From: a virus
Reading direction: 5' to 3' (one strand)
Virus record (IMG/VR): IMGVR_UViG_3300017724_000029
Length of the DNA: 34,004 bases
Position numbers and translations under genes: made by a program. Positions 1-28,240 of the stretch are shown piece after piece; position 1 is the stretch's first letter; every line of letters starts with the position of its first letter. The notes beneath the pieces were generated by a model. It saw only the letters and a program-made list of their open reading frames with translations. It did not search any database and was not told the origin of the DNA.

Positions 1-122
1 GCTCAAGTGTTGCAATAGTCCATGTAGTCATTAGTTAGTCTCCAATTGTGCAACTCTGGCACGTAGTGATTGAATTTCTTTTACAAGCATAGGTACTAGC
101 TTTGAGTAGTCTACGCCCATCA
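1..122. repeat. Terminal direct repeat, copy A (identical to 33883..34004)
   Basis: I compared the two ends base by base. All 122 nt (gctcaagtgttgcaatagtccatg...gtctacgcccatca) match. The repeat contains the tail-fibre stop codon (31..33) and the start of the 105-aa gene (ATG at 29..31). Confidence 0.97.
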
Positions 123-3100
123 TTTCTTCTTCGGTTGCGCCTTCAGACACAGCCTCTGGTGCAACGCTCTGTAGCTCCTGAGCAACCATGCCGTACTTCT
201 GGTGTGAACCGTCAACCTTCCAGTCAAACGAACGTACTTGGATAGCGTCAATGTCGTCAGAAGCAGAAGGTGCGTCTACGATGTTTTCTTTAAGGCGTTG
301 GTCTGAAGAGGTGTTGTAGGCTGTTGCAGAGCCGTCTGTAGATATAGAGCCAACTTCACCGTTACCGTTAAAAAATAATTTGTGTTTTCTACCTGAGGTA
401 GATGTTGCACTAGAATATGTCTGATAATCAGATATGCCAGTGCCTTGAACCGATGCACTTGGCAATTCAGTACAGCTAACCAGCAAGTTGCCAGAGGCAT
501 CTATGCGTGCGGCTTCGGCAGAAACATTGCCTTCAGGATAAAACGCAATGAAGTTAGAACTAGCGGCTATAGTAGGGTTGCCGCCACCATAAGTACCTCC
601 CCAACTTATATTGCCTCCATCACCTAACTCAACACTGCCTGACAGGTAAAGGTCTTTAAAGCCATTGTTTGAATTACCTAAAGAAACTTTACCGTTAACT
701 TCGGTGCCAGACTCATTAGTTGGAGTTATGTGACGTAATGTATCTCCACCTGCTCCAGCTCCTGTTAAGCCTGCGCCTTGTCCAGAACGAGGGTCTAAAA
801 TTATGGTAGAAACAACGCCAGCACGAGATTGAATACTACCGACTTGGGTAGTGGCACCTTTCCTAAATATTAAGATGTCGCCATCAGAGTCTCTTCGGTC
901 AAAAATGCCAGACATTTGGTGAGAAGAAACTGCGTGGACATAACCTCCATTATGTAATGCAACTGATGTTGCGTCTCCTGATGAAGTGCCTGAGACGATT
1001 AAGTTGCCAGAAGTATCGATGCGCATGGCTTCTGACCAGCTGATAGCCGTTCCTGCCGTGCCTGATGCGGCTTGTTGGAATATCATCTCGTTAGCGTCAA
1101 AGAATAAACGAGACGTTCCAGCGGTGTATTTGTAGACTTCGCTGTTGTCTGTTTTAAACACGTAGTTTGTGCCAACCATTCCGTCAACACCACCAGCCGA
1201 ACGACCAACAAGGTTCATACCGCCTTGCTCTAAGTTTCTCCATGCACCTGAAGAATTTTGAGGCGTGACACCAATTCCAACATTCCCTGATGAGTCGATG
1301 CGCATGCGTTCTGTGTTGCCAATAAAATGACCAAACGAATTGTCTGAATGGTCAAACTTGATATAGCCTGCGTAGGAACCTCCTCCACTTGTTGCGTCAG
1401 CGAAGTTTAAGCCTCCATAATTAGAAGATCCTGTGTATATTGTGATGCCTTCATTGCCACTACCAGAGCCTACAACCAAATTACCAAGACCGCTGGATGA
1501 GTTTATTGTTGACGCAACGGTGTTGTTAATACCCACACTTCCGCTAGAATCGAGGCGCATGCGTTCTGTAACATCAGTACCGTTAGACGCACTAGTACCA
1601 AAGGTTAACGGCATACCATAAGAGCTAATCTGTGTGTTAGAAGTGCTATTAACAAGAAAATCAAGGCCGTTATACGGCCCGCTTCCTGTTGCAGAATTGT
1701 ATAGCTTTACAATATTTACAGCATTGTCTGAACCAATTAACGCAGGTCTTGAGGTTCCTACAACATGCAGTTTCTGTGCTGGGCTAGTGCCAATTCCAAC
1801 ATTCCCGTTTAAATCCAAAGTGAATTGAGGATTTGTTCTTGCGTTTATTCCGTTTGTTGCAATGTTAAGATTGCCTGTTGAAGAGCGATAGTCAAAAGTT
1901 GCTCCTCTTGCATCTCCTTCAGAAAGTGTAAGCTGTTCTTGTGAGCTTTTTACGGCTAATTTAACTACAGGCGAGCTAGTAGCAATACCAACATTACCAG
2001 AGCTGGCAAAAGTTACTTTAGGCGTAGTGTTAGCATTAACATAAAAGTTCAAATTGGGACTTGCGCCATTATTTGCACCTATATCCCAATAACTAGATGC
2101 CCCAGTGTTTTCGATAATTCTTAATGCTGAAGGTAAATTTGCAGATACAGTTCTTGAGTAGGCTGAGATTGTTGCTGTAGAGCTTGCCCCTGCGCCTATA
2201 GCGATAGTTTCATTAGAACTAGACCAACTGAACTTCGGAGTTGTCCCCGTATCTTCGTAGAAGCTGATGTCGTTGTTTGCTTCTATAACAGCGGCTTTAT
2301 TGTTTCCAGTATAAAACTCAATTTTTCCTGAACTTCCAGTGCCGCTATATGACTTAAGCCACATATTAGACGAATTGCCTACGCCTATAGTTCCTTCGTA
2401 TGAAGATCCATCATCGTAAAGTTTTAGTTTGTCGCCATTAGATGCAGTTGAAAACGCCCCTGGTTGTCCGTATGAGCCTGAGCCAGTTGCAGAAAAAAAC
2501 AACTCTCCGCTTGCACCATCAACAGTAAGCCCGTCCATCGTGGCTGTGCCACTAACGTCGATGCCTGTGGCGGTTGTGGCTAGTTTATTATTGCCTAAAT
2601 GTGAAAGTGTCACGCCGCCATCAGTAAGAATCTTGATGGCTTCATAATCACTATGTTCTGATTGGTCTACTGAATAAAAAGTAGCAATACCGTCAGCACC
2701 TGAATCACGTCCAGCCTCAATACGTAAACCACGGCCAGTAGTGTCGTAAGGAGTTGAGCCGAAGTATACATCTACTTGAGAATTGTTAGCATTTCCGGTG
2801 TTGTAAACGGTTAGCCCTTCCGCCGTAGCACCTGCGCTAGTAACTCGAACCGTCGTTACGCCATCAGAAACTATGCCGTCGCTGACCACTGTGCCAGTTA
2901 CGTCGATGCCTGTGGAGGTTGTGGCTAGTTTTTCAGAACCATCGTAGTAAAGCTTAAGCGCACCGTCAGTAGTAGCTAACAGTTTGTTTTCACTAAACGC
3001 CGCATTCATCAAAGCAATGTTGTTGGATGCCCCAATATATAAATCGCCAGTGCCTGCGTCAGTTATAAAGCTGTGGCTGCCTGAGTGGTATATTTGTAAG

Positions 3101-3345
3101 TCGCTACCCGCACCGAAAATAGCCTTGGAGTTATCAGGTAGTGTTAAGTTGCCGCTGGCCAAGCTAAGGGAAGTTAAGCCATCGACCGTACCTGAATTAA
3201 TATCAATGCCTGTGACTGCTGTAGTGCCGTCTAGCAGGTTGTCGATACTATCTAGGTTGGTGTTGAGTTTAGTTCCCCAAGTGTCTTCTGAGGCCCCTAC
3301 TTCTGGCTTAACCAGGCTGTACGTAGTCGTTGTAGTGTCAGCCAT
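31..3345 (-). CDS. Tail fibre protein with a C-terminal peptidase S74 intramolecular chaperone domain
   Basis: 1104-aa ORF. The N-terminus [30 protein letters not shown] is typical of phage fibre anchors. Six (M)R(I/L)D(S/T)SGN(V/L)GIG-like motifs are present. The last 92 aa ([10 protein letters not shown]...[16 protein letters not shown]...[20 protein letters not shown]) match the S74 auto-cleaving chaperone pattern. A GGGAGG Shine-Dalgarno lies 8 nt upstream of the ATG. Confidence 0.9.
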
Positions 3346-4284
3346 TTAAGCGGCCTCCCATGTCTCGTCGGTGATGGTTTGATCAGTCCAATTTGCGTCA
3401 CTAGCCGTTTTATCGGTCCATGTCGCGCCTATTAATGTTACGTCAGACCAGTTTGAGTCATTTCCTGCCTGGTCAGTCCAAGTCTCCGAATCGATAGGTT
3501 GATCAACCCAGAGTATTATCGCTGCGCCTGATATAGCCGAGCCGCTTGTTACTACACTGCTGCCCGCTACAGTAACTGCGCCTGCCGGTGATACTGTCGC
3601 CACCCCAGTGATTGACAGAGAGCCGCGCACGACGTTTACACCATTAGCGCTGATTATACCACTTGCAGCGATTGCAGACGCAGAATTCCTTGTCCTTGCG
3701 CCGGATACTGCCGTTGTGGCCAATCCGTTTATTGCAGATGCACCATTTAAGACGCGCGCCCCTGACGCTACAGTAGACGCAGAAGCCCCTACAGCGCTTG
3801 ATGCCTGACGTATAACGCCAGCACTACTAGACGTCGCAGAAGACGCTGAAATGGCTGTATCGCCTTCTCTAACCCTTTGAGCGGCTGGTGTGACCGTAGC
3901 AGAGGAAGATACCGCAGATGCGCCTAGCTTTATCTTCTGACCAGCAGATACCGTGCTAGATGATGCAGAAATATCAGACGATGACTCACGTACCCGTGTT
4001 GCAACGGGTGCCGTGGTAGCTGAAGCTGCAATGGTTGACCCAGTTGTACGTACGCGTGTCGCTACTGGGGTTATCGTGGCTGTGCCGGCAATGGTCGAAC
4101 CACTGGTACGAACACGTAAGCCTGCTGGAGAGGTCGCAGACGTCGCTGTGACGGTTAGATCGCCAAACCTAACGCGAACACAGCTAACGGCCACTGAGGA
4201 TGTTGCTGGACCTAAACTAGCGCCTTCCTCAAGGTCAGCCGTGGAATACGCGGCATAGCCGTATCTCCACTGACCGTAGTTCAT
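3346..4284 (-). CDS. Fibre-associated repeat protein (Ser/Ala/Thr-rich 20-aa repeats plus a Trp decapeptide ladder)
   Basis: 312-aa ORF coupled to both neighbours (TAATG upstream, TAA-ATG downstream). Eleven tandem 20-residue units are followed by six W-x9 units. It sits directly upstream of the tail fibre. Confidence 0.6.
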   Translation of the reverse strand: MNYGQWRYGYAAYSTADLEEGASLGPATSSVAVSCVRVRFGDLTVTATSATSPAGLRVRTSGSTIAGTATITPVATRVRTTGSTIAASATTAPVATRVRESSSDISASSSTVSAGQKIKLGASAVSSSATVTPAAQRVREGDTAISASSATSSSAGVIRQASSAVGASASTVASGARVLNGASAINGLATTAVSGARTRNSASAIAASGIISANGVNVVRGSLSITGVATVSPAGAVTVAGSSVVTSGSAISGAAIILWVDQPIDSETWTDQAGNDSNWSDVTLIGATWTDKTASDANWTDQTITDETWEAA

Positions 4285-4664
4285 TAGTCTAGCGTGATGT
4301 CTAAGTCACCAGCAGGAACGCGGAACACGTCGCCAGTCTCTACAGCCTTAGATGCTGAAAGCGTTCCATAGGCCATAAGGTTGCCGCTTGAAGCCGCATC
4401 AAAAACACCTACGTGAGTAATCGTACCCCAGTTGCTGCCTGCTGTCGGATACTCTACTGCCGCGCTATTAGTGGCTTCGTTTCCTGACACAGTAAATGCG
4501 ACAGACTGACGCGCATAGCTAGTGCCAGAACACTCTGTGCCGCCGCCGGTTTCGCCCGGTGCCGCTGTATACAACGCAAGATAGTGAGTGCCTGGAGCGC
4601 TGTAAGCATTGCCGCCAAAGACGTGGTCAAGGATTTCTGTTTCTAGGAAATTAGTAAAGCTCAT
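4284..4664 (-). CDS. Conserved tail-fibre-adjacent virion protein, function unknown
   Basis: 126-aa ORF with ATGA and TAATG coupling. The motifs FTNFLETEILDHVFGG...YARQSVAF...WGTITHVGVFDA...GDVFRVPAGDLDITLD resemble a widespread phage family seen beside fibre genes. This is recognition from memory only. Confidence 0.55.
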   Translation of the reverse strand: MSFTNFLETEILDHVFGGNAYSAPGTHYLALYTAAPGETGGGTECSGTSYARQSVAFTVSGNEATNSAAVEYPTAGSNWGTITHVGVFDAASSGNLMAYGTLSASKAVETGDVFRVPAGDLDITLD

Positions 4665-5284
4665 GCAAGCCCCCTGTTACGCATAACAAGGCCGCTACCT
4701 GAATGTGTTGCCTCGTCCGATGATTGATTAAGACGCTGTAATGATGCGCCGAAGAGTTGTGCCCATACAGCCGTTCGTTGGTCTTCCGATAGGTAAGGCG
4801 CGGAGTGAACTAACGAACCGTATAAGTAAGCATCTGGTGCCTCAGTCAGCAACCAGTTGGTTGTGGCAGAGTCAGATAACGCAGGTACACGCTGATAATA
4901 CAAAAGCTCAACGCCATAGCTCCCGTCAGGGCTAGGGAAGAACTCAAACTGATTCTCGGAGTGTCTGTAATATCGAGGGATGCCAGTGATATCCAAGTGA
5001 TTAGCGCGCTTGTCTACCATAGCCTGCGCACTAAGAAGATCGAGGGGACGTGTATTCGAGGTTGTAATATTGATACGAATAGTTTCCAGCCAGTCACCAG
5101 GCTTAGTCATAAACTGACTATCGATAGTTCCTGTGGCACGGTTCTCCATCTTATAGTGACGTAGATCGCGCGCAAACTGAGCCTCCGCTAAGGAGATAAA
5201 CGTCGGTATAACAGACGTCAGATCATCCCGGTTGAGGAAATCAGCAATAGAGCTTTTCAGCTCCGCATAGTTAGTCAGTGCCAT
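4661..5284 (-). CDS. Putative head-tail adaptor protein
   Basis: 207-aa ORF. The N-terminus MALTNYAELKSSIADFLNRDDL..IPTFISLAEAQFARDLR resembles proteins annotated as phage adaptors. It sits at the head of the tail gene run. Confidence 0.5.
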   Translation of the reverse strand: MALTNYAELKSSIADFLNRDDLTSVIPTFISLAEAQFARDLRHYKMENRATGTIDSQFMTKPGDWLETIRINITTSNTRPLDLLSAQAMVDKRANHLDITGIPRYYRHSENQFEFFPSPDGSYGVELLYYQRVPALSDSATTNWLLTEAPDAYLYGSLVHSAPYLSEDQRTAVWAQLFGASLQRLNQSSDEATHSGSGLVMRNRGLA

Positions 5285-5451
5285 TACTTACGCTTCCTGC
5301 CAGGCTTCTTGGCTGTCTTAGCGGCTTTCTTAAAGTCCTTTGCACTAGGCGCACCTTTCTCTCCAGCCTTGCGCATAGTCTCGCCGCTACCAGCTTTGAT
5401 GCGCTTACGCTTGGCTTGAATGTTGGCGTATAGTCCTCGTTTACTTGGCAT
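5284..5451 (-). CDS. 55-aa polybasic protein (absent from the ORF track)
   Basis: I translated this by hand: MPSKRGLYANIQAKRKRIKAGSGETMRKAGEKGAPSAKDFKKAAKTAKKPGRKRK. It has 20 K/R and 3 D/E. Its stop overlaps the adaptor start (TAATG), and its ATG lies 1 nt after the upstream TGA. It is a more plausible product than the out-of-frame 61-aa track ORF 5271..5456. Confidence 0.6.
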   Translation of the reverse strand: MPSKRGLYANIQAKRKRIKAGSGETMRKAGEKGAPSAKDFKKAAKTAKKPGRKRK

Positions 5452-5452
5452 A

Positions 5453-5503
5453 TCACTTCCCTCGCTTCTTACCTTTCTTTTTCTTGCCGTAACCGTAGGC
5501 CAT
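5453..5503 (-). CDS. Possible 16-aa polybasic micro-ORF (MAYGYGKKKKGKKRGK)
   Basis: Its ATG overlaps the stop of the 84-aa gene (TAATG), and its TGA lies 1 nt before the next ATG. It may be a coupling ORF only, and it is too short to be sure. Confidence 0.25.
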   Translation of the reverse strand: MAYGYGKKKKGKKRGK

Positions 5504-5757
5504 TACTTGCTCCTTGATTTAGTTCCAGAACACTTCCAGCGCTTACGAGATAAGCGTAAAGGTGAGTTAGGATTGGCAGCCGCTTTCGGGTGTTTCTTCA
5601 TCTGACCAGCGGATCGCGCACAATAGGCGTCTCCCTTGCTAGTTCCTGGCCGTACTCGCGACTTACCATCCTTGGCTTTACCGGCCTGCCCATACGATAC
5701 TTTCTTGCCGGAAGCCGTAACCTTTACCTTTGCCTTACCTTTACGTGGTGTCGCCAT
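5503..5757 (-). CDS. 84-aa polybasic protein
   Basis: The ORF has 25 K/R against 2 D/E. It contains the motif SKGDAYCARSAG...NSPLRLSRKRWKC. Confidence 0.65.
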   Translation of the reverse strand: MATPRKGKAKVKVTASGKKVSYGQAGKAKDGKSRVRPGTSKGDAYCARSAGQMKKHPKAAANPNSPLRLSRKRWKCSGTKSRSK

Positions 5758-5769
5758 ATTATACCTTGC

Positions 5770-7674
5770 TTATAGCAGGAACTCACTTGCAGCCGCTGGA
5801 TTGTAGATTCCACGCTTTGCTTGAGTGCTGAATTTTAACAATCCTTCAATCATATCCTCGACGACTCCGGTATATGCTGGGCTGTAACCACCTAACAGTC
5901 CTTCACGCGCTTCCGGGTCTTTTGACCGCTTGATTGGCAGTAAGTCGCTGTAGTTATACGCTTCACTATCTTTCTGTGGGAGCTGTGCAAGCAAGCCTTC
6001 TGCCTCTTGCCCTGCCGCTACGGCTGCCGCTGTAACCATTGGGTTGGCATTTACATTAACACCGCGAGCCTCTAGACCGCGAAGTATGTCTTCCGTAATG
6101 CGGCCTGTGTACGGCTTCATTGTAAGCGCGCGTATTTCTCGATCTGTAGGCCGTATGGGATCAACAACCGGTTTTTGTGCTTTCCCTAACAAAGCGTCCG
6201 GCACTAACTCAAAGATGCTAACTTCTTGATCTGTACGACCAAGCCCCTGACCCGGAACTCCGTAAGGATATGACGGGTGACCGCTTTTAGTAATTACGTC
6301 GGCGTCTTTGTAAATTTCGCCAATGTTTTGTATGCGTGCATCTAATGCATTTGCTTGACCGGGTTCAGTTACCGCAAGCCTTGCCTGACCAATGCTAAGA
6401 CCGCCTTTGTTGCGGAAGTTAACGTCGATCATGTTCATAAGCTCTTTACGTAGTGCGTCAGGTGCGTTCCTAAACGCTTCGACTGATCTCGGGTCGTCTA
6501 CCCCTTTCCAGCCTTTTATCTTTAAGCCGGAGTTTTTTCGTACCCCGTCTTTTACAGTGCCTTTACTAACGAATTCTGTAACTGCCTTATTAAGCTCTTT
6601 TTTCGTTTCTTTCGCCATGTTGGACGCGGCATAACTGAGCATTGTCTCGCCGGTCATTGTGGCAAAATCGCCGCCAGTAGGCGCCATGCGGAAAGGCATA
6701 TAAAGTGGGTTTTCTCCGGTTTCTCGAGCCGCCTTCATTATTTGCGTTACAACGCCAGGAGCTGACGCCCACGTCATACCTGGATTTTCAAACATAAATC
6801 CTTGACCGCCTTGCAAGTTGATAGGGCGATTTAAGGCTACGTCGTCAATGGCGCTAAGTATCCCGCCTGCCTGAGTACGGTCTGACATTGTGGTTACAAA
6901 AGGGCGTCCTTCAAGGTCAGATAGTGCGATTCTAGGAACGTCCTGAGTACCACGCTCTTCTATAGTAAATGTGGTATCTCGAAGTTTCTCTTGCTCTTTG
7001 GCCCGAGGATCAAATCTAGGGTCAAACTCACGACCGAACGTCTTTATGACGCCGGCCTCTGCCTCTTCTGGCGACATAGCCGCAGCAGCTAAAAGCCCAG
7101 CGCCGGCAACAGGTATAGCCCGGTCACCAAGTATATTAGACCCTTTGTACTCAGGGTCGAATGCGGCAAATAGTGAGCGGACATTACGAGGATCAAACGT
7201 GACCACTTCAGGCGCTAAAGAGCCTCGCTCCCCTGCTTTACTGCCTGCATACCCCATACCCTCAAGCGTTTCATTTAGGATGCGCTGGCCTTCTCTGCCG
7301 CTAATCTCAGGCCGCAAATCAAATGCGTCGGCACGCTTAATATAATCTCCACGCAACAATAAAGGCATGACATTGCCGCCTTCGGCGTAGGGGCTTGGAT
7401 ATCCTGCAAATACAGACGCCTTTGATGGGCTAGGCGTAGTGTAAACGCCCGGCCCCATCTTTCCTTTTGCGCTGGGTCTGAACTGCGTAATGTCTGCTTC
7501 TGTTCCGTGATATTGCACGTCACTAGGGTCGAAGCCCATAGCCTCAGCACGCTGCATGCGAGAGGCTGAATCCATAGGAAGTTGACCGGCAACAATGCGT
7601 TCAGCAGTTTCTTCTGGAAATCCAGCAGTGATTAATTCATCAAGAATGCCGCGTAAGCGAGAGCCGATTGCCAT
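5770..7674 (-). CDS. Large protein with N-terminal ADP-ribosyltransferase-like (H-Y-E type) motifs, possibly a packaged polyvalent-type effector
   Basis: 634-aa ORF with a GGAGG Shine-Dalgarno. It carries YHGT (aa 55-58), GPGVYTT (aa 74-80) and APEVVTFDPRNVRS (aa 154-167) in the order and spacing expected for an ART core. I do not recognise the remaining roughly 450 aa. Confidence 0.45.
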   Translation of the reverse strand: MAIGSRLRGILDELITAGFPEETAERIVAGQLPMDSASRMQRAEAMGFDPSDVQYHGTEADITQFRPSAKGKMGPGVYTTPSPSKASVFAGYPSPYAEGGNVMPLLLRGDYIKRADAFDLRPEISGREGQRILNETLEGMGYAGSKAGERGSLAPEVVTFDPRNVRSLFAAFDPEYKGSNILGDRAIPVAGAGLLAAAAMSPEEAEAGVIKTFGREFDPRFDPRAKEQEKLRDTTFTIEERGTQDVPRIALSDLEGRPFVTTMSDRTQAGGILSAIDDVALNRPINLQGGQGFMFENPGMTWASAPGVVTQIMKAARETGENPLYMPFRMAPTGGDFATMTGETMLSYAASNMAKETKKELNKAVTEFVSKGTVKDGVRKNSGLKIKGWKGVDDPRSVEAFRNAPDALRKELMNMIDVNFRNKGGLSIGQARLAVTEPGQANALDARIQNIGEIYKDADVITKSGHPSYPYGVPGQGLGRTDQEVSIFELVPDALLGKAQKPVVDPIRPTDREIRALTMKPYTGRITEDILRGLEARGVNVNANPMVTAAAVAAGQEAEGLLAQLPQKDSEAYNYSDLLPIKRSKDPEAREGLLGGYSPAYTGVVEDMIEGLLKFSTQAKRGIYNPAAASEFLL

Positions 7675-7703
7675 AAAGCCTCCAGTATGGAAAGCCGATT
7701 ATA

Positions 7704-8990
7704 TCAGACAATACCCTGTAAGTTCCTGCGTATCGGATCGCCCCAGTCTGAGGTCTTACGGTAGCCCACGGCTAAGTATCGGAAGGCATCCGCACAGTGT
7801 GATGTCCAGTCGTGCAATGGCCGCTCGTTCCAGACCATCATCGACTCGTTGTATTGACGCCTGTACTGCCTAAGACAATCGATACCCTTCTCGCATTTGT
7901 CCTTATCGAAGTAGCATAGATCAAGCATCGATCTGGCCGCTTGAATGCCATCATCTACGTTGAGCTGCGGAGCAATCTGAACCGGGCGCACACCTAAGTT
8001 ATCCAGCACTTCTAATCGAGACCGGCCACTTCCTAGCTCTCTGACCCTCACATCGTGAGGCAGAACGTGCTGGTCATACACATAGCCCTTTTCTTGCAGT
8101 ATGCGTGCGTAATGATCTAGTCCGACGCCAGCGTTCTCATAGTAGTCAATAAGGCGAACCTCCGGCCCTACAAACTGAGCAAACCATATAGCAGTGCTAT
8201 CGCCTACCCCTAAGTCCCAAGCTGTCACAACGCCTACAGAGCGCTCATACGGCACCCGGTCGATACGGTTCTCATGTAAGGCATTCGCCATCTCTTGAGT
8301 GTAGTAAGCGCCCTCAGAGAAGATCCTGAAGTCGCCTTCCCAGATGTGGTCGTACACATCAGGACGTTTCTTAAGGTCATCCTGGCGCTCAGACTCTAAG
8401 ACGGATGGGAACCAAGGATTGTCACGCCAATTCATCTCGACGATCTTGCACTCATCGGGAGTATTCACCCTGAATCGCTTGTGAGCTGCGGAGTGTTTGT
8501 TCTCAGGGTTCCAAGTTACCCATATCTCAGACTCATCTTCTCGCACAGTCGGTATGAGCTTTTGCCATGCGGTCTCAGTAACAGTCTCTGCCTCGTCTAC
8601 CCAGCACAATAGAATGCGAGCCTTAGACTTGATGCTATCCAGGTTCCTACGCAGGCCGGCAAAGACGTAAGTGATGCGCCCATCCTTGCTGCGGATATAC
8701 CTTTCGCCGATCTCATAGTAGTCAGTAAGACACTTTACGGATCGTATCGCTGACTTAACCTCTTCCATCGAAGATTCATCGAGAGAGTTAAGATGTTCAC
8801 GAGCGCAGAGTATTTGCCCTTGCTTGCCAGCTACTCCCCAACGCATTCCCCATACAGCGGTCATCAATGCGAATGAGCGAGTCTTGGCAGAGCCACGTCC
8901 ACCATAAGAGCACCTGTACCTAGCTTCGCCGGTGAATAGATCGGCTAGCTTAGGCGGTAGTTCAATCGAGACCTTTTGCGACAAGTTCAA
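7704..8990 (-). CDS. terL: Terminase large subunit
   Basis: 428 aa. It has a Walker A motif (YGGRGSAKT), a Walker B motif (ILLCWVDEAE), a coupling motif (WNPEN) and nuclease motifs (WDLGVGDSTAIW and HDWTSHCADAFRY). Confidence 0.95.
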   Translation of the reverse strand: MNLSQKVSIELPPKLADLFTGEARYRCSYGGRGSAKTRSFALMTAVWGMRWGVAGKQGQILCAREHLNSLDESSMEEVKSAIRSVKCLTDYYEIGERYIRSKDGRITYVFAGLRRNLDSIKSKARILLCWVDEAETVTETAWQKLIPTVREDESEIWVTWNPENKHSAAHKRFRVNTPDECKIVEMNWRDNPWFPSVLESERQDDLKKRPDVYDHIWEGDFRIFSEGAYYTQEMANALHENRIDRVPYERSVGVVTAWDLGVGDSTAIWFAQFVGPEVRLIDYYENAGVGLDHYARILQEKGYVYDQHVLPHDVRVRELGSGRSRLEVLDNLGVRPVQIAPQLNVDDGIQAARSMLDLCYFDKDKCEKGIDCLRQYRRQYNESMMVWNERPLHDWTSHCADAFRYLAVGYRKTSDWGDPIRRNLQGIV

Positions 8991-19548: not shown

Positions 19549-20505
19549 TTACGAAGTAGTGTTGTCAGCAATGATACCTGATGCCTTCTCGTTCTTACAA
19601 ACAAGAGTAAGCTCAGTTGTCACCTGACGTGTAGTCGCATCTCCAGTCTTAGCGAGAGCGATGTTCTTAGTTGGACGCAATACGCCAACACACCACATAT
19701 CAGACTGCATAACGAACACATCACGCGAACGGTTCTCACGCGAAGGAACAAACTCTACTGTACCCCAAGGAGTAACGTAGACATCCATGTGCTTGATAAC
19801 GCGCTCGTCTTCTGCCTTAACGGTAGAACGCTGGTTGTTGTTACCAGCAAAGCCGAGGGCTACGTTCATCTGGAAAGCTGACAAGTAGCAAGTGTCAGGA
19901 TTTCCGCCCTGCTCCCAGATAGACTGCATGACATCGTCAAACTTAGCCTGTGAGAAAGCAGTTGGAGTGCCGTCATCTGTACGTGCGTCAGATCCGTCAC
20001 CAGTTGGGTCAGCACCAGAGTTGCCTGATTGTGAGTTCACGTTAGTGATCATCCACGCAGGAGCGCCAGCAAGCTCACGAGCTGTAGTGCTGTTACCAGC
20101 CGCTCGTGCGTTGTTGTCGAAAAGCGCCTTCTCAATGTCAAGCTTCTGCTCTTTCGCAGTCTTGAGCATTTGGTAAGCGATTTCAGCTGCACGACCTGCC
20201 TTCTTCAGACCTTCGTCTGTGTCAGGAATTACTACCGCGTTCTTAAAGATTTGCGTGTAGTTGCCGAGACGTGAAGTCGCAGTACGCGCAGAAGCAGTAG
20301 TTGCATCGCCTTCAATGTGAGCGTTAGCTGCTGAAGAACGAAGTGCATCTGTTTGCCACTCGTGCAAAGTGTTAGCTGCCTTTACTTTCGCGCAAGCAGT
20401 GTAAAAAGGAGTCTCTTCTGGTGATACGTCATAGATGACGTCAGAAAGATCTTCCCGGATGCCGACAGCATCATAGCTGTCAAAAGTGTTGGATGGCTGT
20501 GCCAT
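19549..20505 (-). CDS. Major capsid protein (SU10-MCP/DUF5309-like)
   Basis: 318 aa. SYDAVGIREDLSDVIYDVSPEETPFYT...LHEWQTDAL is the signature N-terminal region of this capsid family. A scaffold gene lies upstream and a strong terminator downstream. Confidence 0.9.
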   Translation of the reverse strand: MAQPSNTFDSYDAVGIREDLSDVIYDVSPEETPFYTACAKVKAANTLHEWQTDALRSSAANAHIEGDATTASARTATSRLGNYTQIFKNAVVIPDTDEGLKKAGRAAEIAYQMLKTAKEQKLDIEKALFDNNARAAGNSTTARELAGAPAWMITNVNSQSGNSGADPTGDGSDARTDDGTPTAFSQAKFDDVMQSIWEQGGNPDTCYLSAFQMNVALGFAGNNNQRSTVKAEDERVIKHMDVYVTPWGTVEFVPSRENRSRDVFVMQSDMWCVGVLRPTKNIALAKTGDATTRQVTTELTLVCKNEKASGIIADNTTS

Positions 20506-20516
20506 GATAAATACCT

Positions 20517-21464
20517 CTATTCAAGAATTAAGCTCATAGCATCATTGATGCTTCCTGAGCGTTTAAGTTTAGATCGAGCTTGCCTGCCTTGATTGCGATT
20601 AGAAGACGTCTTCTTTGATCCAGCTTTAACGACCTTTGATGGCTTTGGCTTGGCTTTTTGTACAGCCCTTTCCTTTCCATCTTTAATCTCTTGATACCGC
20701 ATGGCGTCTCGCAATACTCGGATTGCTCGGTGGTCCATGACAGATGAGATTTCTTCGGCTGAATAACCATATACCTCTGACCCCATGCGCAGCATAGTGT
20801 CTCGGACTGTGGTCGCCTTTTCTGGGTCGGCAAAATCAGGATCAACCTGACGTAGCGTTTCCATCTCGCGCTCTAAATAGGCTTGTTGTGCTTGCTGTTG
20901 AGCTTGTTGCTGGTAAGCAAACGTCTGTTTCATTTGCATCATATCGGTCTGATATTTCTGCATTTCTTTATCGTAACGAGCTTTGTCTTGCGTGTACCCA
21001 ATAGGGTCAGACTCAATCAAAGCCTCGTCCGGTGCCACTGGTGCTTTTGCAAAGCCGGGGTTTTGCATCTGTTGATACAAAGACAGTACGGCCTCACCAG
21101 CATTCGCCAGTGTCGCATTAGCGGTTTCAGCTTTCTTTCGCAGGTCAGCGACTTCCTGCATACCCTTCTGAATGTATTGTTGACCACTATAACCGCGCTG
21201 TAGCTCATCTAGCGTGACCTCGACTTCCGTTCCGTCTACCTTGACGGTGAAAATTTGAGGCTGCTCTTCTTCGGCTACTTCCGGCTCTTCTTCGTCAACG
21301 TCAGGATCGGGTTGCTCCTCAGTCTCCTCGTCTAAGTCCTCTTCAGGTTCCTCGACTTCTGCTACTTCGGGCGCTTCTTCCTGCTCTGGCTCCTCGTTTT
21401 GAACGAGAAGGTCTACTGCTGATTCGATGCTGCCATCGAACGTTACTTCATCAGTCGTTTCCAC
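20517..21464 (-). CDS. Scaffolding protein
   Basis: 315 aa. It has a poly-acidic N-terminus (EEPEQEEAPEVAEVEEPEEDLDEE...), a helical Q-rich body and a basic C-terminus. It lies between the portal and capsid genes. The start is GTG with an AAGGAGA Shine-Dalgarno. Confidence 0.7.
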   Translation of the reverse strand: METTDEVTFDGSIESAVDLLVQNEEPEQEEAPEVAEVEEPEEDLDEETEEQPDPDVDEEEPEVAEEEQPQIFTVKVDGTEVEVTLDELQRGYSGQQYIQKGMQEVADLRKKAETANATLANAGEAVLSLYQQMQNPGFAKAPVAPDEALIESDPIGYTQDKARYDKEMQKYQTDMMQMKQTFAYQQQAQQQAQQAYLEREMETLRQVDPDFADPEKATTVRDTMLRMGSEVYGYSAEEISSVMDHRAIRVLRDAMRYQEIKDGKERAVQKAKPKPSKVVKAGSKKTSSNRNQGRQARSKLKRSGSINDAMSLILE

Positions 21465-21703
21465 GGTACTGATCTCCTTTGTTGTTTATCGAAGATAGCT
21501 TCATCCGTAAGGATGACTGCCATGCGATCTTCAATCTTCGCTAATGCCCTTACAATTTGATGGGCGTCTTCCCGGTCTTCCGAAGAAGAGTGCGGGTTTA
21601 GGAAGACATTGGCTGTGTCTTCTCTAATTTCATCTAACAGCATATTGAACGATTCATCATTCTTGAGGCGCTTAACGTGCGCCGCACGATCTTTGATGTT
21701 CAA
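21443..21703 (-). CDS. Hypothetical protein between the portal and scaffold genes
   Basis: 86-aa ORF. The TTG start is uncertain. It overlaps the scaffold start by 22 nt. Confidence 0.45.
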   Translation of the reverse strand: MNIKDRAAHVKRLKNDESFNMLLDEIREDTANVFLNPHSSSEDREDAHQIVRALAKIEDRMAVILTDEAIFDKQQRRSVPWKRLMK

Positions 21704-21704
21704 A

Positions 21705-23807
21705 TCACATACCCATAGGATTTCTAGGTGCGTTTTGTAGCTGTTTAATTCGTTCTACATCTACGGCTGTGCCGTACTTACCGATAATTTCTGCCGCGCT
21801 AATCAATAGGTTTTGATCCAACTCATCGCGCTTCAAGTCGTCATTGGCCATAGCCTGCTGGGCATCCAGCATCATCTTCTGCTGGTCTAGCTGAGACTTG
21901 GCCATAACCTTCATTTGGTCTGACTGCATCTTAGCTTGCATCTTCATTTGCTCTGCCTGCAAATACGCCGCATTAGGATCGCCTTGTTGCTGCTGACCCT
22001 GCTGTTGCTGTTGCATCATCATCTGCTGTTCCATAGCTGGATTAAGAGGCATAAAGTAGCGCTCAGAGTTGCGGACGCCATTGATCGCCAGTATGTCAGA
22101 TAAAGTGTTTCTTATGTTTGACAGAGAAACCATGCCATTGCCAGGGCCGTACGATTGGAATATTTGGATTTGCATTTGTAACGCTTGGTTGAGTACAGCG
22201 ACCTTTTGGTCTTCTCTACCCGTGCCGAGACCCACGTTAATCGATACGTCCATGCCGGTATTCCATGAGCGGGGATCGACAGGCACATAGCTTTGGCCCT
22301 GTAACCGCATCATCTGCTCTTCATCGACGTTCTCTACCATGACCTTTAGCATAAGCCTAAACATCTGACGCATACCGCCTTCGGCAAGGTTTCGAGCCAT
22401 TACTTCAATCTGCGCCGCCTGAGCCTGCATAGTAGCCGCTACAGCAGTAGCCGTTGTGCTTTGCAGTGCATCAGGTGATAAGCCAGTAGAAGCTTTCGTG
22501 ACCCCAGTCTTATCTTCTACCTGCTGATCGAAATATTGTAAGGCAGAAAGGGTCTGACCTGCGACGAACGGGACAGCTTGTGGCTGAATAGCGCCTGACT
22601 GCTTAACGCGGATGATCCCGCCAATCTCATTGTTTAGTAGGTCATCGACGTTTACTGCTCCGTCTACAATCTCTACGCGAGGGTTGTTAGTCAGTGCGAC
22701 GTTGTCCAATACACCACGAAGCATAGCTGTAGCCGCGTCTTGGTCATTTAAAATAAGGTCAGCAACCGACCGGCCATAGAATGTATGCGGCTCAGGGTCT
22801 ACTTCAAATACAGCAAACGGGATTTGTCCGCATGGCTCATAGTCCAATAACTTGTACTGATTTCCACCTAATGTGACCTTGTGTAACTGCGCTACTCCAG
22901 TGCCGTTTACGTCAATCTTAATATATGCCTCTGTCACAGCCACTAGACGCATTGAGGGGTCTTGTACGTCCTCGTCAGAGTAATCCTCTTCGTACCCTCT
23001 ACGTTGGTACTCCTCAACCTCAGAGAACGTGTCAGAGTGTTGTAGGCCGCTTAGATCGTAGACTTCTTCGTAGTCATAACCCATAGCCACCAAATCGCCC
23101 ACACGCATTTCTGTACGATGAGCAACAACGTAATAATCATCGATAGAGCGTGAGTTACGATCAATGAAAAACTCTTCCGGAGGTACACTTTCAATGCACA
23201 TCTTGCCTTTTTCGACCGTGCGAGCAATCTTAAGGTCATGGCGCGGAGCTTCCATTTCCATGCCCATTTGGTCCATTTCCATGACCATTTGAGTTGTGTG
23301 CTCCAATACCTCAACGTCGTCTTCATTAACGAGTACAGAAAACTCCATGTCGTTAAGATCTTGGAAATCGTATATTTCTTGCTCTTGGTAAGTATCCCAG
23401 TAAACCTTGACGACACCGACCTTCTTAATGAGCGCATCGTGTATTGCATCGTTAAGCACCCTATAGCCGTTTAGCTCATTGAACTGATAGTGCATATACT
23501 TAGTGGCCTGCTCAGCCATCTGTACGTCTTCTTGGTTACGTGGCACAAACTCTACCGGCTTGTCAGTAGACAGAAATACACGCATCAAAGACGGCTTAAT
23601 AGCCCGTACGGTATCCCGTACCTTTGTAGAGACGACCTTAGACCGGCCATCTTCTTCACCGATATCGGTTTCACCATCAAAGTAACGCTGTGCCTTTATT
23701 CGGTCTTCAGCAATCTCAGATTCACAGAAATCAACGGCGTCTTGTATTGCCTCGCGTGCAATGCCCTCAATGTCCTGCTCTGTCATTGGTTTTAAATCCA
23801 TAGTCAT
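21705..23807 (-). CDS. Portal protein
   Basis: 700 aa. The N-terminal region AQRYFDGE...VVSTKVRDTVRAIKPSLMRVF is typical of portals. The C-terminus is a long Q/M-rich helical barrel-like tail. The gene is followed by scaffold and capsid. Confidence 0.85.
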   Translation of the reverse strand: MTMDLKPMTEQDIEGIAREAIQDAVDFCESEIAEDRIKAQRYFDGETDIGEEDGRSKVVSTKVRDTVRAIKPSLMRVFLSTDKPVEFVPRNQEDVQMAEQATKYMHYQFNELNGYRVLNDAIHDALIKKVGVVKVYWDTYQEQEIYDFQDLNDMEFSVLVNEDDVEVLEHTTQMVMEMDQMGMEMEAPRHDLKIARTVEKGKMCIESVPPEEFFIDRNSRSIDDYYVVAHRTEMRVGDLVAMGYDYEEVYDLSGLQHSDTFSEVEEYQRRGYEEDYSDEDVQDPSMRLVAVTEAYIKIDVNGTGVAQLHKVTLGGNQYKLLDYEPCGQIPFAVFEVDPEPHTFYGRSVADLILNDQDAATAMLRGVLDNVALTNNPRVEIVDGAVNVDDLLNNEIGGIIRVKQSGAIQPQAVPFVAGQTLSALQYFDQQVEDKTGVTKASTGLSPDALQSTTATAVAATMQAQAAQIEVMARNLAEGGMRQMFRLMLKVMVENVDEEQMMRLQGQSYVPVDPRSWNTGMDVSINVGLGTGREDQKVAVLNQALQMQIQIFQSYGPGNGMVSLSNIRNTLSDILAINGVRNSERYFMPLNPAMEQQMMMQQQQQGQQQQGDPNAAYLQAEQMKMQAKMQSDQMKVMAKSQLDQQKMMLDAQQAMANDDLKRDELDQNLLISAAEIIGKYGTAVDVERIKQLQNAPRNPMGM

Positions 23808-25387
23808 AAACCTTGCGCTCTTCCTGCTTGGAACAAGATGCTGCGTGTAAGAGGATCAGTAATCATATTCAAAAGGCCGGAAGGGATTTTTTGACCTGCC
23901 GCCCTCACCCCGCCTGCGATATCTTGCCCGACTCCTGCAACTTGACCTGCCCGATAAGCCGTCTCGCCAACTAATCTCGGAGAAGATCCGGCTGCCATTG
24001 TTGTTGCTACCGGCAAGTTACCAGATGCCGCCTGCTGTAGGGTAAGCGGTCCCATGCCAAATCTAGCAGCGCCCCTGGGCGCATACGGTGAAAGTGCTTG
24101 CCCAGCTAAACCAGCGCGGAATGGAACGCCACCAGAGGCTTGTAATTGATCTGCTAACCGTGTTCGTTGCCCATAGTTTGTTTGAACATTATCGCGCATA
24201 ACAGACTGCAATTTGCGTAACTGCGTATCCAAACTGGCCTTTGGATTAAGACTAAGCGTTCTTTCTATTTCGGTAATAAGTTCTGCGGCCTGACTATAAT
24301 CCTTCATCGCTTCTGAATAGACGGGAGCTTGCGCGCTAATTTCAGATCTAATTTGATCATAGATGCCTTGCACCGCCGCGCGAGCGTTGCGTTGCTCCAT
24401 TGGAATATTATCTATAATTGCGCCGACAGAACGCTTAAGTGCATCAACACCTTCTGCTGTGTGATAAAGGGCAGGGTCAAGTTGCGCCCATTCCATAATT
24501 TTGTCTTGAGCCTTTGCAATTGCTCTTGCTGCATTTTCGTCAGTAATTTGCCGACCAAATGTCGCGCGTTCCATCGCTTGTTCAGCAATGTCATATATAC
24601 GGCGCATCTGTATAGGCTCACGAGCCTTACCAACTTCCTGCATTTGTGCGCGATATCTTTGCATCATACGCTGACGCATCTGCGTTAATCCTTGCTTAGC
24701 GGCATCCACAACAACAAGAGGATCTCCCTGACCTCTCATCTGCGTTGTCAACATTTCGCCTCGCTCGCCACCCTCACGACCCGCCTCAAAGGCTTCTCGT
24801 ATTGGCGTTTCGCCAACTCCGGTCGTAACTCCTAAAGCAGATGCTGTGATTGGGCCAGCTTTACTGGCAACCTTTGCCGCTCCTTTCGCTGCTAATGCTG
24901 TCGGCTCTGTAACTGCCGCCGCTCGCGATAAGGTAGAGCCTACTCTACCCGGCACAGTCGCACCGCCGATACCGAATACTGTAGACACATCACCTAAAAA
25001 ACCGGCAGGGTCAGTCGCAAAAGTACGCTTTGCTTGCTCTACGCTTCCGTATCGATCAACGTACATCTGGCCAACTTGGCGTGCCAGCTCTCTACTTTCT
25101 GGGTCTTCACCAATAACTTGAACGACACTTTCTGGCAATGCCTCTTGCAGTGCTCCTGCACCTAAATCTAAAACTGTTTTTGCAGTATCTATTGGGCTGA
25201 GTGCTGCTCCGACAACATCAGAACCAAGCTGATACAAAGAGCTTGGCAAATTCATAAGCGCACTGCCGGCAACCTGCGCCGCAGTCATATTAGCTGGCTC
25301 TTCGCTTACGGCTACTTGAGGCTGAATTGTTGTATCGTCTGCTAGTAAGTTAGCGCTGAACTTTTTAATTATCTCCTCTTCTGTCAT
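23804..25387 (-). CDS. Presumed internal virion / ejection protein
   Basis: 527-aa Ala/Gly/Gln-rich ORF, ATGA-coupled to the portal gene. I recognise no enzymatic motif. Confidence 0.45.
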   Translation of the reverse strand: MTEEEIIKKFSANLLADDTTIQPQVAVSEEPANMTAAQVAGSALMNLPSSLYQLGSDVVGAALSPIDTAKTVLDLGAGALQEALPESVVQVIGEDPESRELARQVGQMYVDRYGSVEQAKRTFATDPAGFLGDVSTVFGIGGATVPGRVGSTLSRAAAVTEPTALAAKGAAKVASKAGPITASALGVTTGVGETPIREAFEAGREGGERGEMLTTQMRGQGDPLVVVDAAKQGLTQMRQRMMQRYRAQMQEVGKAREPIQMRRIYDIAEQAMERATFGRQITDENAARAIAKAQDKIMEWAQLDPALYHTAEGVDALKRSVGAIIDNIPMEQRNARAAVQGIYDQIRSEISAQAPVYSEAMKDYSQAAELITEIERTLSLNPKASLDTQLRKLQSVMRDNVQTNYGQRTRLADQLQASGGVPFRAGLAGQALSPYAPRGAARFGMGPLTLQQAASGNLPVATTMAAGSSPRLVGETAYRAGQVAGVGQDIAGGVRAAGQKIPSGLLNMITDPLTRSILFQAGRAQGL

Positions 25388-26772
25388 TACTTCTGCCCTC
25401 TGTTAAATTCATCTGCCATTTCATTGGCTGTTTCAACATTTTTAGCTGTGACAGATTTTCCAGATGGAAACACAACCGCATTACCGACGACAGTTGCCGA
25501 AATGCCTAATCGTCCTGCGCCTATACCAGAGGCCACACGTAACGCATTAATAACCGTTTCTCGATTCCTTCGTTTTTGCGCTATGACCACAGGAGAGTCA
25601 CCGGGAACTGGGAAATACTGCTTTTCAGCGCTATCAAACTCACTATCAGCAATTGCGGCACCAGATTCTCGTCTAAGGTTTGCGTTAATAAAGTCTCTCT
25701 TTGCCTGCTCATACCTTTTGTACTCTTCCGGCATTGCGTAACGCGCTAACCCAGTAGGATCTTTTTCTAGCATAGCATTACTAAAGCTTGTGCCCTGCTG
25801 CTCTAACAAGCCTTGGTCTGTTGGTTGTAATAAGATTCTGTGCGACTCTAATACGCGGCTATAAAATCCCGTCGCATTTGATTCTCCTTGAGTCAAAGGC
25901 TTACTAGCTGGGTCAGAAGCAGGATATCGGAGCCTCATAAATTCTTCAAAGCTACCTACGAAGCCTTCGTTTTCTTTGGCGTACTTATATTCTTTAATCA
26001 ATGAAGTGTCTGCCGGCTTATCGGGAGCACCCTCAATACCAATAACCTCGCCTGTAACTGCATTCAACTTGTACAAACGACCCTCTGGCAAGTTAGAGCC
26101 AAACATTTGATTAACTTCTTTGCCTGATTTAATGTCAAAATTTTCTATGCCAGACGCAAGTTGCGCAATTTCTTGTGGTGTTTTTTTAGGATAAGCGGCC
26201 TGTAAGGTGGCTATTTTTTGTTGCAGAGTTGTAGGTTGCCGAGTTTTGGCTTCATAGTGTTGCTGTAAAGCAAACTTTGCTAAATCAGGCTGCTGCTGAA
26301 TAAGATCAGCAAGACTTTCACTACCTTCTGCGCGCAGAAACGCCGCTGTTCGATTTGCTTGTTGTGCCTGTTGTCTGCCTGTTTGCACGCGCTCCGATCT
26401 TGCTTGCACTGACTTAACTAAATTAGAATCAGGCTGTAAGCGCATAGAGTTAAGGGCAGTTACAATCTGAGCGTTACGGACAGGGTCTTGCAGCGCATCC
26501 AAAGCACCTCGCCCTAACCGGCTTAACAATCCAGCTTGCTCTGGTTTGGCAGTAGTAGATCCGCCGCTCACAGATCTGGCCGGCTGCATGGCTTGTGCGC
26601 GAGCCGCCTCAAAGTTTTGCATTTGCTGTTGAGCTTGAGGCGTCATAGCTACCCTTGAGTTTGGTGCGCGACGTTGTTGTATCTGCTCCATCATTTGCAT
26701 CATTCTGCGCTCTTCATCATCACGCGCTGATGCTTTTGGTGGTACAGGCTGACCAGTCATCATCCCCGACAT
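25387..26772 (-). CDS. Presumed internal virion / ejection protein
   Basis: 461-aa ORF with a Q/M-rich N-terminus. It is TAATG-coupled. Confidence 0.45.
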   Translation of the reverse strand: MSGMMTGQPVPPKASARDDEERRMMQMMEQIQQRRAPNSRVAMTPQAQQQMQNFEAARAQAMQPARSVSGGSTTAKPEQAGLLSRLGRGALDALQDPVRNAQIVTALNSMRLQPDSNLVKSVQARSERVQTGRQQAQQANRTAAFLRAEGSESLADLIQQQPDLAKFALQQHYEAKTRQPTTLQQKIATLQAAYPKKTPQEIAQLASGIENFDIKSGKEVNQMFGSNLPEGRLYKLNAVTGEVIGIEGAPDKPADTSLIKEYKYAKENEGFVGSFEEFMRLRYPASDPASKPLTQGESNATGFYSRVLESHRILLQPTDQGLLEQQGTSFSNAMLEKDPTGLARYAMPEEYKRYEQAKRDFINANLRRESGAAIADSEFDSAEKQYFPVPGDSPVVIAQKRRNRETVINALRVASGIGAGRLGISATVVGNAVVFPSGKSVTAKNVETANEMADEFNRGQK

Positions 26773-26783
26773 AATTCTATCCT

Positions 26784-27104
26784 TTAAGCCATGCCTAAAT
26801 ATTTCATCATTTTAAAAATCATTTCTTTTTTATTTGCGCCGTCACCATTATCTGGTTGAGCGCCCATAATGCCTTGGCCGGAAACCATAGCAGGAATCTG
26901 CGGCTGTTGTAGTAAGCCTCCGCTAAACCCTAAAGCCTGTGGTTGTTGAACAGCAAACGGTTGAGCAATTTGTGCAGACGCAGCACCAACACTCTGAGCT
27001 TTTTGGCGAATTAATGCTTTTTTCTTTTCGTCTTCCATCAGCAAATCAAGCAAGCCTTTAAAAGCTTGTTTTTGTTGCGGAGCCTGTGAGTCTGTTGCAA
27101 CCAT
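26784..27104 (-). CDS. Small Q-rich virion-module protein
   Basis: 106-aa ORF inside the internal-protein block. Confidence 0.45.
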   Translation of the reverse strand: MVATDSQAPQQKQAFKGLLDLLMEDEKKKALIRQKAQSVGAASAQIAQPFAVQQPQALGFSGGLLQQPQIPAMVSGQGIMGAQPDNGDGANKKEMIFKMMKYLGMA

Positions 27105-27108
27105 ATCT

Positions 27109-28230: not shown

Positions 28231-28240
28231 GTTATTTACC

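Follow-up and report, generated by a model that had tools for sequence, protein, structure and literature searches.

The window considered here, a stretch of 34,004 nucleotides (nt) from IMG/VR virus record IMGVR_UViG_3300017724_000029, belongs to an uncultured marine podophage, whose closest cultured relative is Octadecabacter Antarctic DB virus 2 (OANV2; portal 46.5% identical). At positions 5770 to 7674 of its minus strand lies an open reading frame (ORF) of 634 codons plus stop, beginning with ATG, as read from the ORF list and its translation. A preliminary description of this DNA, made from the letters alone, had placed a protein of 634 amino acids (aa) with motifs like those of ADP-ribosyltransferases (ARTs) between the terminase and tail genes. 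The ORF and its place are confirmed, and its strand, which had not been given, is minus. The protein is made up of a leader, an ART domain of the ART-PolyVal type, a hydrophobic linker, an undescribed core domain and a C-terminal tail. An identical 634-aa protein is called on other public contigs, and its homologues number 896.

The assignment of residues 48-175 (7150..7533, minus strand) to the ADP-ribosyltransferase fold of the polyvalent-protein family is supported by Pfam, by Foldseek and by profile alignment. The motifs reported earlier are all present in the translation: YHGT at residues 55-58, GPGVYTT at 74-80, 16 residues after T58, and APEVVTFDPRNVRS at 154-167. For the whole protein the only Pfam match is PF18760 (ART-PolyVal), with 25.3 bits and E 3e-5, which agrees with the polyvalent-protein ARTs named in the preliminary description; residues 1-210 alone score 28.0 bits, the gathering cut-off of the family being 31.2 bits. 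Among 47 aligned relatives, 36 match PF18760 at E<=1e-3 (best 1.2e-13), one related protein reaches 54 bits, and precomputed matches are on record for homologues that are 94% and 86% identical. An AlphaFold model of residues 1-210, built from the 47-sequence alignment, has a mean predicted local distance difference test score (pLDDT) of 73.9, against 83-92 for the core. It places strands at 48-58, 76-80, 101-108, 144-147, 156-159 and 165-167, after three N-terminal helices, and their order is that of the ART core. With this model, Foldseek returns almost solely ART folds from the PDB, tankyrase-2 PARP domains first (E 8e-4, probability 1.0), followed by PARP2, ExoA, the anti-CRISPR ART AcrIF11 (6kyf) and a RES toxin, with probabilities of 0.97-1.0. 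The template modelling (TM) scores are 0.33-0.38, normalised to the 210-residue query, of which about 125 residues are the domain.

A sequence search of the PDB with residues 1-210 gave nothing significant. A profile of 19 diverse ART copies gave 15 weak matches (E ~0.7), 13 of them to tankyrase-2, and in this alignment YHGT falls on FHGS (H1031), GxGvYtT on GAGIYFA (Y1060) and position 89 on Y1071. The domain closes with the signature h-h-h-F-D-P-x-x-V-R-S-x2-A-A-F-D-P, which is also present in distant homologues. The R-S-E triad of the T4 Alt/VIP2 ARTs is not found; the motifs are of the H-Y-E/D kind and the sole Pfam match is to ART-PolyVal. It is very improbable that the motifs arose by chance in an N-terminal region that is no ART at all. 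Such a coincidence would fit a Pfam score under the curated cut-off, matches in the PDB that by sequence only are not significant alone (E ~0.7) and TM-scores that are modest. However, four independent lines converge, namely Pfam, Foldseek on the AlphaFold model, the profile alignment to tankyrase-2 and the conservation of the His and the aromatic residue; relatives exceed the Pfam cut-off; and the H...Y motif pair, which occurs once among all six-frame segments of the window, is met in 1 of 20,000 composition-preserving shuffles of the protein (~5e-5). The ART reading of the preliminary description is thereby upheld.

Upstream of the domain, the leader (residues 1-47; 7534..7674, minus strand) has three predicted helices, at 2-16, 21-28 and 36-45 in the AlphaFold model, and the alignment shows the pattern GYPxEVAERIxxGxLPMDxxSRMxRAxxMGF to be kept. 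Its last helix ('ERAxAMGFD') is also found in stand-alone ART modules, the metagenome proteins P0126-P0133 of 190-250 aa, which share the FxPxNIRSxxAAFDP signature and a hydrophobic C-terminal tail as well. Since these stand-alone versions carry helix, signature and tail, the ART module appears as an independent unit. ART-PolyVal has been described as the 'N4-ART' family, with its prototype in the virion RNA polymerase polyprotein of Roseovarius Plymouth podovirus 1 (Iyer et al. 2017, PMC5512222).

Two of the three putative active-site residues are well kept. H56 (codon 7507..7509, minus strand) ends strand 1 within YHGT, is aligned with tankyrase-2 H1031 and is predicted to be the NAD-binding His; position 56 is His in 96 of 105 aligned homologues (~92%) and position 57 is Gly in 103 of them. 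Y78 (codon 7441..7443, minus strand), in strand 2 within GPGVYTT, is aligned with Y1060 and is the predicted nicotinamide-stacking Tyr, at a position where each of the 107 aligned homologues has an aromatic residue (Y 68, F 33, W 5). A second aromatic residue, F89, stands about 11 positions further on and corresponds to Y1071; it is Tyr in most relatives. The third residue is less clear. In PARPs and diphtheria-type toxins, the catalytic Glu is the first residue of the fifth strand. E156 (codon 7207..7209, minus strand) opens predicted strand 5 (156-159) and stands where H-Y-E ARTs canonically have their catalytic Glu. Among the aligned relatives this position holds E in 45, D in 12, T in 23, V in 15 and N in 8, the others having I or M, so that the conservation expected of the motifs in homologues holds for H56 and for an aromatic residue at 78 and fails for E156. 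As many as 22 of the 23 relatives with T156 carry D at position 155, and an acid at 155 or 156 is present in about 79 of 109 homologues; among 19 diverse ART domains, position 156 is E, D or Q in 12.

An alternative catalytic acid is D161 (codon 7192..7194, minus strand), which lies in FDP just after strand 5 and is Asp in 102 of 109 homologues (~94%). The stand-alone ART versions mostly have Asn in place of this Asp, and Gln or Thr at position 156. The active site of ART-PolyVal has been given as H-Y-D, the Asp belonging to strand 5 (Iyer et al. 2017, PMC5512222). Judged by the alignments, D161 may be the catalytic Asp of the family and is a candidate equal to E156. The allele in the window keeps the His, the G-x-G-x-Y-x-T pattern, the second aromatic residue and both acids.

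The ART domain is followed by an Ala/Gly-rich hydrophobic linker (residues 176-215; 7030..7149, minus strand), which reads AIPVAGAGLLAAAAM, then PEEAEAG, and is predicted to be disordered, with pLDDT <50 at residues 181-210. Its hydrophobic character is kept among relatives and its sequence is variable. A transmembrane helix was considered and is unconvincing: the hydrophobic run is about 15 residues long and the mean over 19 residues is about 1.0 (Kyte-Doolittle estimate).

The largest part of the protein is a core domain of about 320 residues (216-534; 6073..7029, minus strand), modelled by AlphaFold with pLDDT mostly 85-97. It is rich in conserved motifs (FDPRFDPR, SDRTxAGG, LQGGQGFMFENPG, WAS, RMAPTGGDF, TGET, WKGVDDP, GGLSIGxARLAV, IQNIG, SGHPSYP and MKPYxG) and at dozens of its positions a Gly, Asp, Arg, Glu, His or Trp is invariant. 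No match to it was found in Pfam, even at E<=1, or in PHROG and NCBIfam; a C-terminal profile against PDB sequences gave nothing significant, and Foldseek of the core model found no PDB structure at an E better than 0.5. Weak Foldseek matches to YTH and AspT were dismissed as noise. The C-terminal 450 residues, which the preliminary description had not recognised, are thus without a match in every library tried. Against BFVD, the core has 17 structural matches, nearly all of them uncharacterised proteins of uncultured tailed phages, among them large proteins labelled 'structural protein', 'PcfJ-like' and 'NAT_SF'. No MuF-annotated protein is among these BFVD matches, and outside the ART there is no Pfam match at E<=1.

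An exhaustive HMMER search with the core returned 972 cluster representatives, almost all from uncultured phages, in which the conserved block spans query positions 17-335 at 40-60% identity. The core may stand at the N-terminus, in the middle or at the C-terminus of proteins of 300-1950 aa, and a 412-aa protein from distant phages consists of the core only (L066). In 49 larger core proteins the Pfam partners are ART-PolyVal (11), LPD23 (4), DUF6321 (2) and DUF3990 (2), with single occurrences of an SLT transglycosylase, an S-adenosylmethionine (SAM) lyase, PcfJ and a metallopeptidase. An ART is found in 1 of 65 shorter core proteins. One relative has been named 'peptidoglycan hydrolase-like' by JGI. 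Compared within the same loci, the core is conserved above the portal or major capsid protein (MCP), 53% vs 40%. A tblastn search with the core against 50,697 GenBank phages gave one match of E=0.1, and none was found in 72,556 plasmids. Two GTDB scans, over 185,579 species genomes, gave none and then two contigs from metagenome-assembled genomes, of Limnohabitans sp. and Caulobacter sp. (L090 and L091, 14-16 kb), which carry the core. Possibly they are phage contigs that were binned together with the host, and they may hint at the hosts of freshwater members. In practice, the core is confined to uncultured phages.

The C-terminal tail (residues 535-634; 5773..6072, minus strand) is modelled with pLDDT 42-62, is partly helical and ends in GxYNPxAAxEFLL. 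It is exchanged as a module: two types occur, about 75-100% or about 32% identical to that in the window, independent of the ART allele.

The ART domain itself behaves as a cassette. Among proteins with 75% identity or more to the core in the window, the ART segment (residues 48-159) is either about 96-98%, about 36-53% or about 15-27% identical, independently of leader, junction, core and tail. Its identity thus spans 15-98% while the core of these close homologues stays at 76-95%. The junction that borders the cassette (residues 160-183; FDPRNVRSLFAAFDP) is usually 88-100% identical. In P0018, for example, the leader is 94%, the ART 36%, the junction 100%, the core 92% and the tail 99% identical to the protein in the window. 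At 70% identity, 107 ART segments of close homologues fall into 28 clusters or alleles, and the allele in the window is the commonest (25 of the 107). In some relatives two or three ART copies stand in tandem (two in P0053 and in P0072), and in others the ART is placed after the core. Several relatives had seemed to carry non-ART N-termini, as if an effector of another kind could be swapped in; Pfam shows these to be mostly divergent ART-PolyVal alleles, and the idea was therefore changed to that of an allelic ART cassette. The neighbouring 84-aa basic protein was considered as a cognate immunity protein and discarded, being 98-100% identical where the ART allele differs. In its GC composition the cassette forms no clear foreign island. 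Such a mosaic would be expected if the module faced host targets or sensors that vary, in the manner of an arms race.

The gene occupies a conserved slot. The order TerS-TerL-X-basic84-basic55-adaptor-Gp80, in which X is the gene studied here, is kept in about 40 related contigs from IMG/VR and other sources. Phages that are more distant have the core gene beside TerL, just upstream of it, or between portal and MCP; in another distant locus it is found upstream of a tail fibre. In OANV2 the same slot, formed by the 55-aa basic protein, gp6 and the adaptor, holds a protein with a ParB-like part and an ART. Because OANV2 gp6 sits there, what the slot conserves is a polyvalent protein with an ART-PolyVal module, and not the core. 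The notion of the core as an essential structural protein is weakened by this phage, which lacks it.

Directly upstream in the window lies the large terminase gene (7704..8990, minus strand), recognised by phrog_3717 (1e-63), phrog_2 and PF04466. Its stop codon (7704-7706) is 30 nt upstream of the start codon of the 634-aa gene, and a Shine-Dalgarno motif GGAGG, read from the sequence at 7679..7683 on the minus strand, precedes the ATG at 7674 by 4 nt. It had been remarked that the gene follows terL in the place where a portal normally sits, with the real portal 14 kb away. This proves correct: the phrog_3717/PF04466 terminase adjoins the gene, and the PF23899 portal (21705-23807, minus strand), followed by a scaffold and an SU10-type capsid protein, is 14.0 kb away.

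Directly downstream is the gene of the 84-aa polybasic protein (5503..5757, minus strand; 25 K+R, 2 D+E), which is kept at 64-100% in all close relatives. Within it, a stretch of 134 nt (5510-5643) has 77% DNA identity to Roseobacter phage CRP-212, the sole nucleotide match to a GenBank phage for window positions 1-25000, the part that was queried. The next gene encodes a 55-aa polybasic protein (5284..5451, minus strand; phrog_16028; 20 K+R), which is also kept in relatives. Of the three polybasic micro-genes proposed in the preliminary description, these two stand; the third (5271-5456), which lies across the 55-aa gene in a different frame and is uncalled on matching public contigs, was rejected. 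Residues 1-36 of the 55-aa protein recur at 70-82% identity in 79 cultured marine podophages (T7-like cyanophages, pelagiphages and roseophages), at varied genome positions, and it is far better conserved than the structural genes of these same phages. The proposal that it is a linked virion partner is weakened by this widespread occurrence of its motif at varied positions.

The slot is closed by an SU10-type head-to-tail adaptor (4661..5284, minus strand; PF24175, 7e-36). Beyond the adaptor and a Gp80-family gene lies the tail fibre (31-3345, minus strand), and between the Gp80-like gene and the tail fibre a 312-aa Ser/Ala/Thr-rich protein (3346-4284, minus strand) is encoded, with repeated 'ATRVR...SSSAT' units and without a family match. 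The listed neighbour genes are all on one strand. As a whole, the structural module (19549-23807 and 4284-5284, minus strand) is SU10/Kuravirus-like, with the PF23899 portal, a PF17236 capsid protein, the PF24175 adaptor and PF23140 Gp80. Other genes of this marine phage of about 34 kb look lambdoid (Sak annealase, NinG, exonuclease), and replication and recombination genes part the portal and capsid genes from the terminase. Just upstream of the portal, five consecutive ORFs of 808, 373, 106, 461 and 527 aa (23804-30667, minus strand) gave no informative family matches. They are equal in number to the five reported ejection proteins of SU10 and may be the ejection proteins here.

On balance, and by a modest margin over even chances, we favour the reading that the protein is a small polyvalent effector of a marine podophage, carrying an ART of the H-Y-[E/D] class and probably packaged and injected. 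NAD+ would be held in place by H56 and Y78, with E156 (or D161) as the acid that activates the transfer of ADP-ribose onto a host macromolecule. The flexible hydrophobic linker would join the ART to the core domain, probably a second enzymatic or effector activity, with the short exchangeable tail coming last. The protein would be produced late, along with the terminase and the neck proteins, be packed into the capsid, be released into the cell with the DNA and act in the first moments of infection, like T4 Alt. The ART cassette would recombine between its conserved flanks, as in an arms race with the host. Packaging we infer because of the synteny, the entry-type partners of the core (SLT, SAM lyase) and the precedent of gp27 of cyanophage A4, which is discussed below.

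Several observations weigh against this reading. Both PF18760 scores are under the gathering cut-off and match only profile positions 9-59, the N-terminal half. Of 109 aligned relatives, only 57 have E or D at position 156. The His is lost in some alleles (YKGG, YTGTT, YSGTT, YNGGN), so that part of the family cannot be a canonical enzyme. OANV2 is without the core, which is therefore no universal part of the virion. In sequence, A4 gp27 is only weakly alike (9.8 bits; hhalign probability 41%). A primase/helicase gene about 3 kb upstream is the nearest neighbour of the core gene that could be identified in one distant locus. Finally, the five unassigned ORFs beside the portal could be ejection proteins, as in SU10.

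The variable E156 and the several alleles without His may be taken to mean that the ART is dead or a mere binding module, and that the core does the job, for instance as a virion-borne cell-wall-degrading or channel-forming ejection function. Such a division of roles would also agree with a core that is better conserved than portal and MCP, with the near absence of ARTs from the short core proteins, with the JGI name of the hydrolase-like relative and with a search of the large structural ORFs of this phage that turned up neither an SLT nor a lysozyme domain. We nevertheless hold it to be distinctly unlikely: the allele in the window, the commonest one, keeps all candidate residues, the core has no detectable likeness to any muralytic fold in the PDB, and OANV2 keeps the ART, and not the core, in the same slot.

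The ART could also be active and made late without being packaged, working in the already infected cell on phage DNA, phage proteins or host factors. DarT-like DNA ARTs and T4 ModA/ModB act from within the cell. If the five other ORFs on the portal side supplied SU10-like ejection proteins, an unpackaged enzyme would fit well, and the primase/helicase in the one distant locus points the same way. Yet the position between TerL and adaptor is kept in about 40 contigs, the core is fused elsewhere to SLT and SAM lyase domains, whose activities are useful at entry, an ART-like domain is present in the packaged A4 pre-ejectosome, and a late cytoplasmic enzyme would be left little time to act. This possibility, although it deserves consideration, is therefore unlikely, and a packaged and injected effector remains the preferred reading.

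Part of this picture was already known. An ART of the ART-PolyVal family in a phage protein beside the terminase is what has been predicted by Iyer et al. (2017, PMC5512222; 2022), so that the main idea of the preliminary description is correct and not new. These authors predicted head-packaged ARTs beside terminase and portal genes, and describe their action as a prediction only. Head-packaged ARTs besides T4 Alt have thus been predicted from genomes since 2017. What is new is the large, abundant, phage-restricted and undescribed partner domain, the way in which the ART diversifies as a cassette while its flanks are conserved and, possibly, the presence of an ART module in a packaged ejection protein of solved structure.

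It is tempting to speculate further about the core. Tentatively, and with rather less than even confidence, residues 216-534 can be viewed as an undescribed phage-restricted effector or carrier domain that defines a large injected polyvalent family in uncultured aquatic podophages, a counterpart of the MuF-based families, onto which ART, SAM-lyase, muralytic and protease modules are shuffled under host pressure. If this is true, the 634-aa protein is a minimal and tractable example for finding the activity and target of ART-PolyVal. To our knowledge, there is no ART-PolyVal enzyme with a known substrate or an experimentally shown activity or target. The protein offers a compact two-domain example from a very abundant marine phage group, and the diversifying exchange visible in its ART module marks this as a contact point with host defences. 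The function of the core, once found, would annotate about a thousand protein clusters.

When compared with ART-PolyVal (PF18760) itself, the protein shares the His of strand 1, the Tyr of strand 2, a setting of late genes, a multidomain phage protein as carrier and the possibility of tandem copies. It differs in lying just under the gathering score, in offering two acids, E156 at the beginning of strand 5 and D161 where the strand ends, against the H-Y-D described for the family, and in its partner, which is an undescribed domain and not MuF, MPTase or RNAP. As to what makes a protein polyvalent, the gene setting is a late or virion one (the TerL-adaptor slot in the contigs mentioned, with TerL, portal or MCP adjacent in most others), and of two or more domains with disparate activities this protein has the ART and, as a probable second one, the folded core. 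With PARP/tankyrase, diphtheria toxin and ExoA, the likeness lies in the fold and in the register HG[ST] ... GxGxY[FT]x ... Y/F; the identity is about 10-16%, and the domain here is minimal (~125 aa), lacking the regulatory and helical subdomains of PARPs. Nothing points to poly-ADP-ribosylation.

The MuF-effector fusions (SPP1 gp7, Mu F) similarly combine a conserved module with variable effector domains in the head-morphogenesis region, whereas the protein in the window has no MuF domain according to Pfam and its core is not universal in the lineage. T4 Alt provides the working model of an ART that is made late, packed in the head, injected with the DNA and active on host proteins. Alt belongs to the R-S-E (Alt/VIP2) clade and not to the H-Y-E/D one, and its packaging and targets are demonstrated, in contrast to those proposed here. 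OANV2 gp6 (L001, 2752-4233; annotated 'hypothetical protein') has the same slot and the same ART module, including FDPxNIRSxFAxFDP and the hydrophobic tail (hidden Markov model match, 8.9e-26). Its ART is C-terminal, however, and the partner is a ParB-like N-terminal half (DGRHR motif, EDGRHRAIAARELG) instead of the core. The OANV2 paper contains no virion proteomics; gp6 is a typical polyvalent protein in a culturable system.

A structural parallel from a virion is gp27 of cyanophage A4 (Anabaena phage A-4L; L089, 20116-25269), which is chain B of the pre-ejectosome structure PDB 9k3a and is matched by the ART model in Foldseek (E 1.7e-3). Around residues 1420-1605 it reads YHGT, GSGTYFS, AAS and DTTLVINPDAVSVI, in the same order as in the protein of the window. 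At 1717 aa it is mostly of another architecture and has no homologue of the core. Experimentally, gp27 lies in the outer layer of the packaged pre-ejectosome, inside the capsid (PMC12002296); an ART domain is nowhere mentioned in that paper. By its Foldseek match and its motifs, gp27 seems to contain an ART-PolyVal-like module, and it would then provide both a physical precedent and a cultured system for the packaging and the activity of such ARTs.

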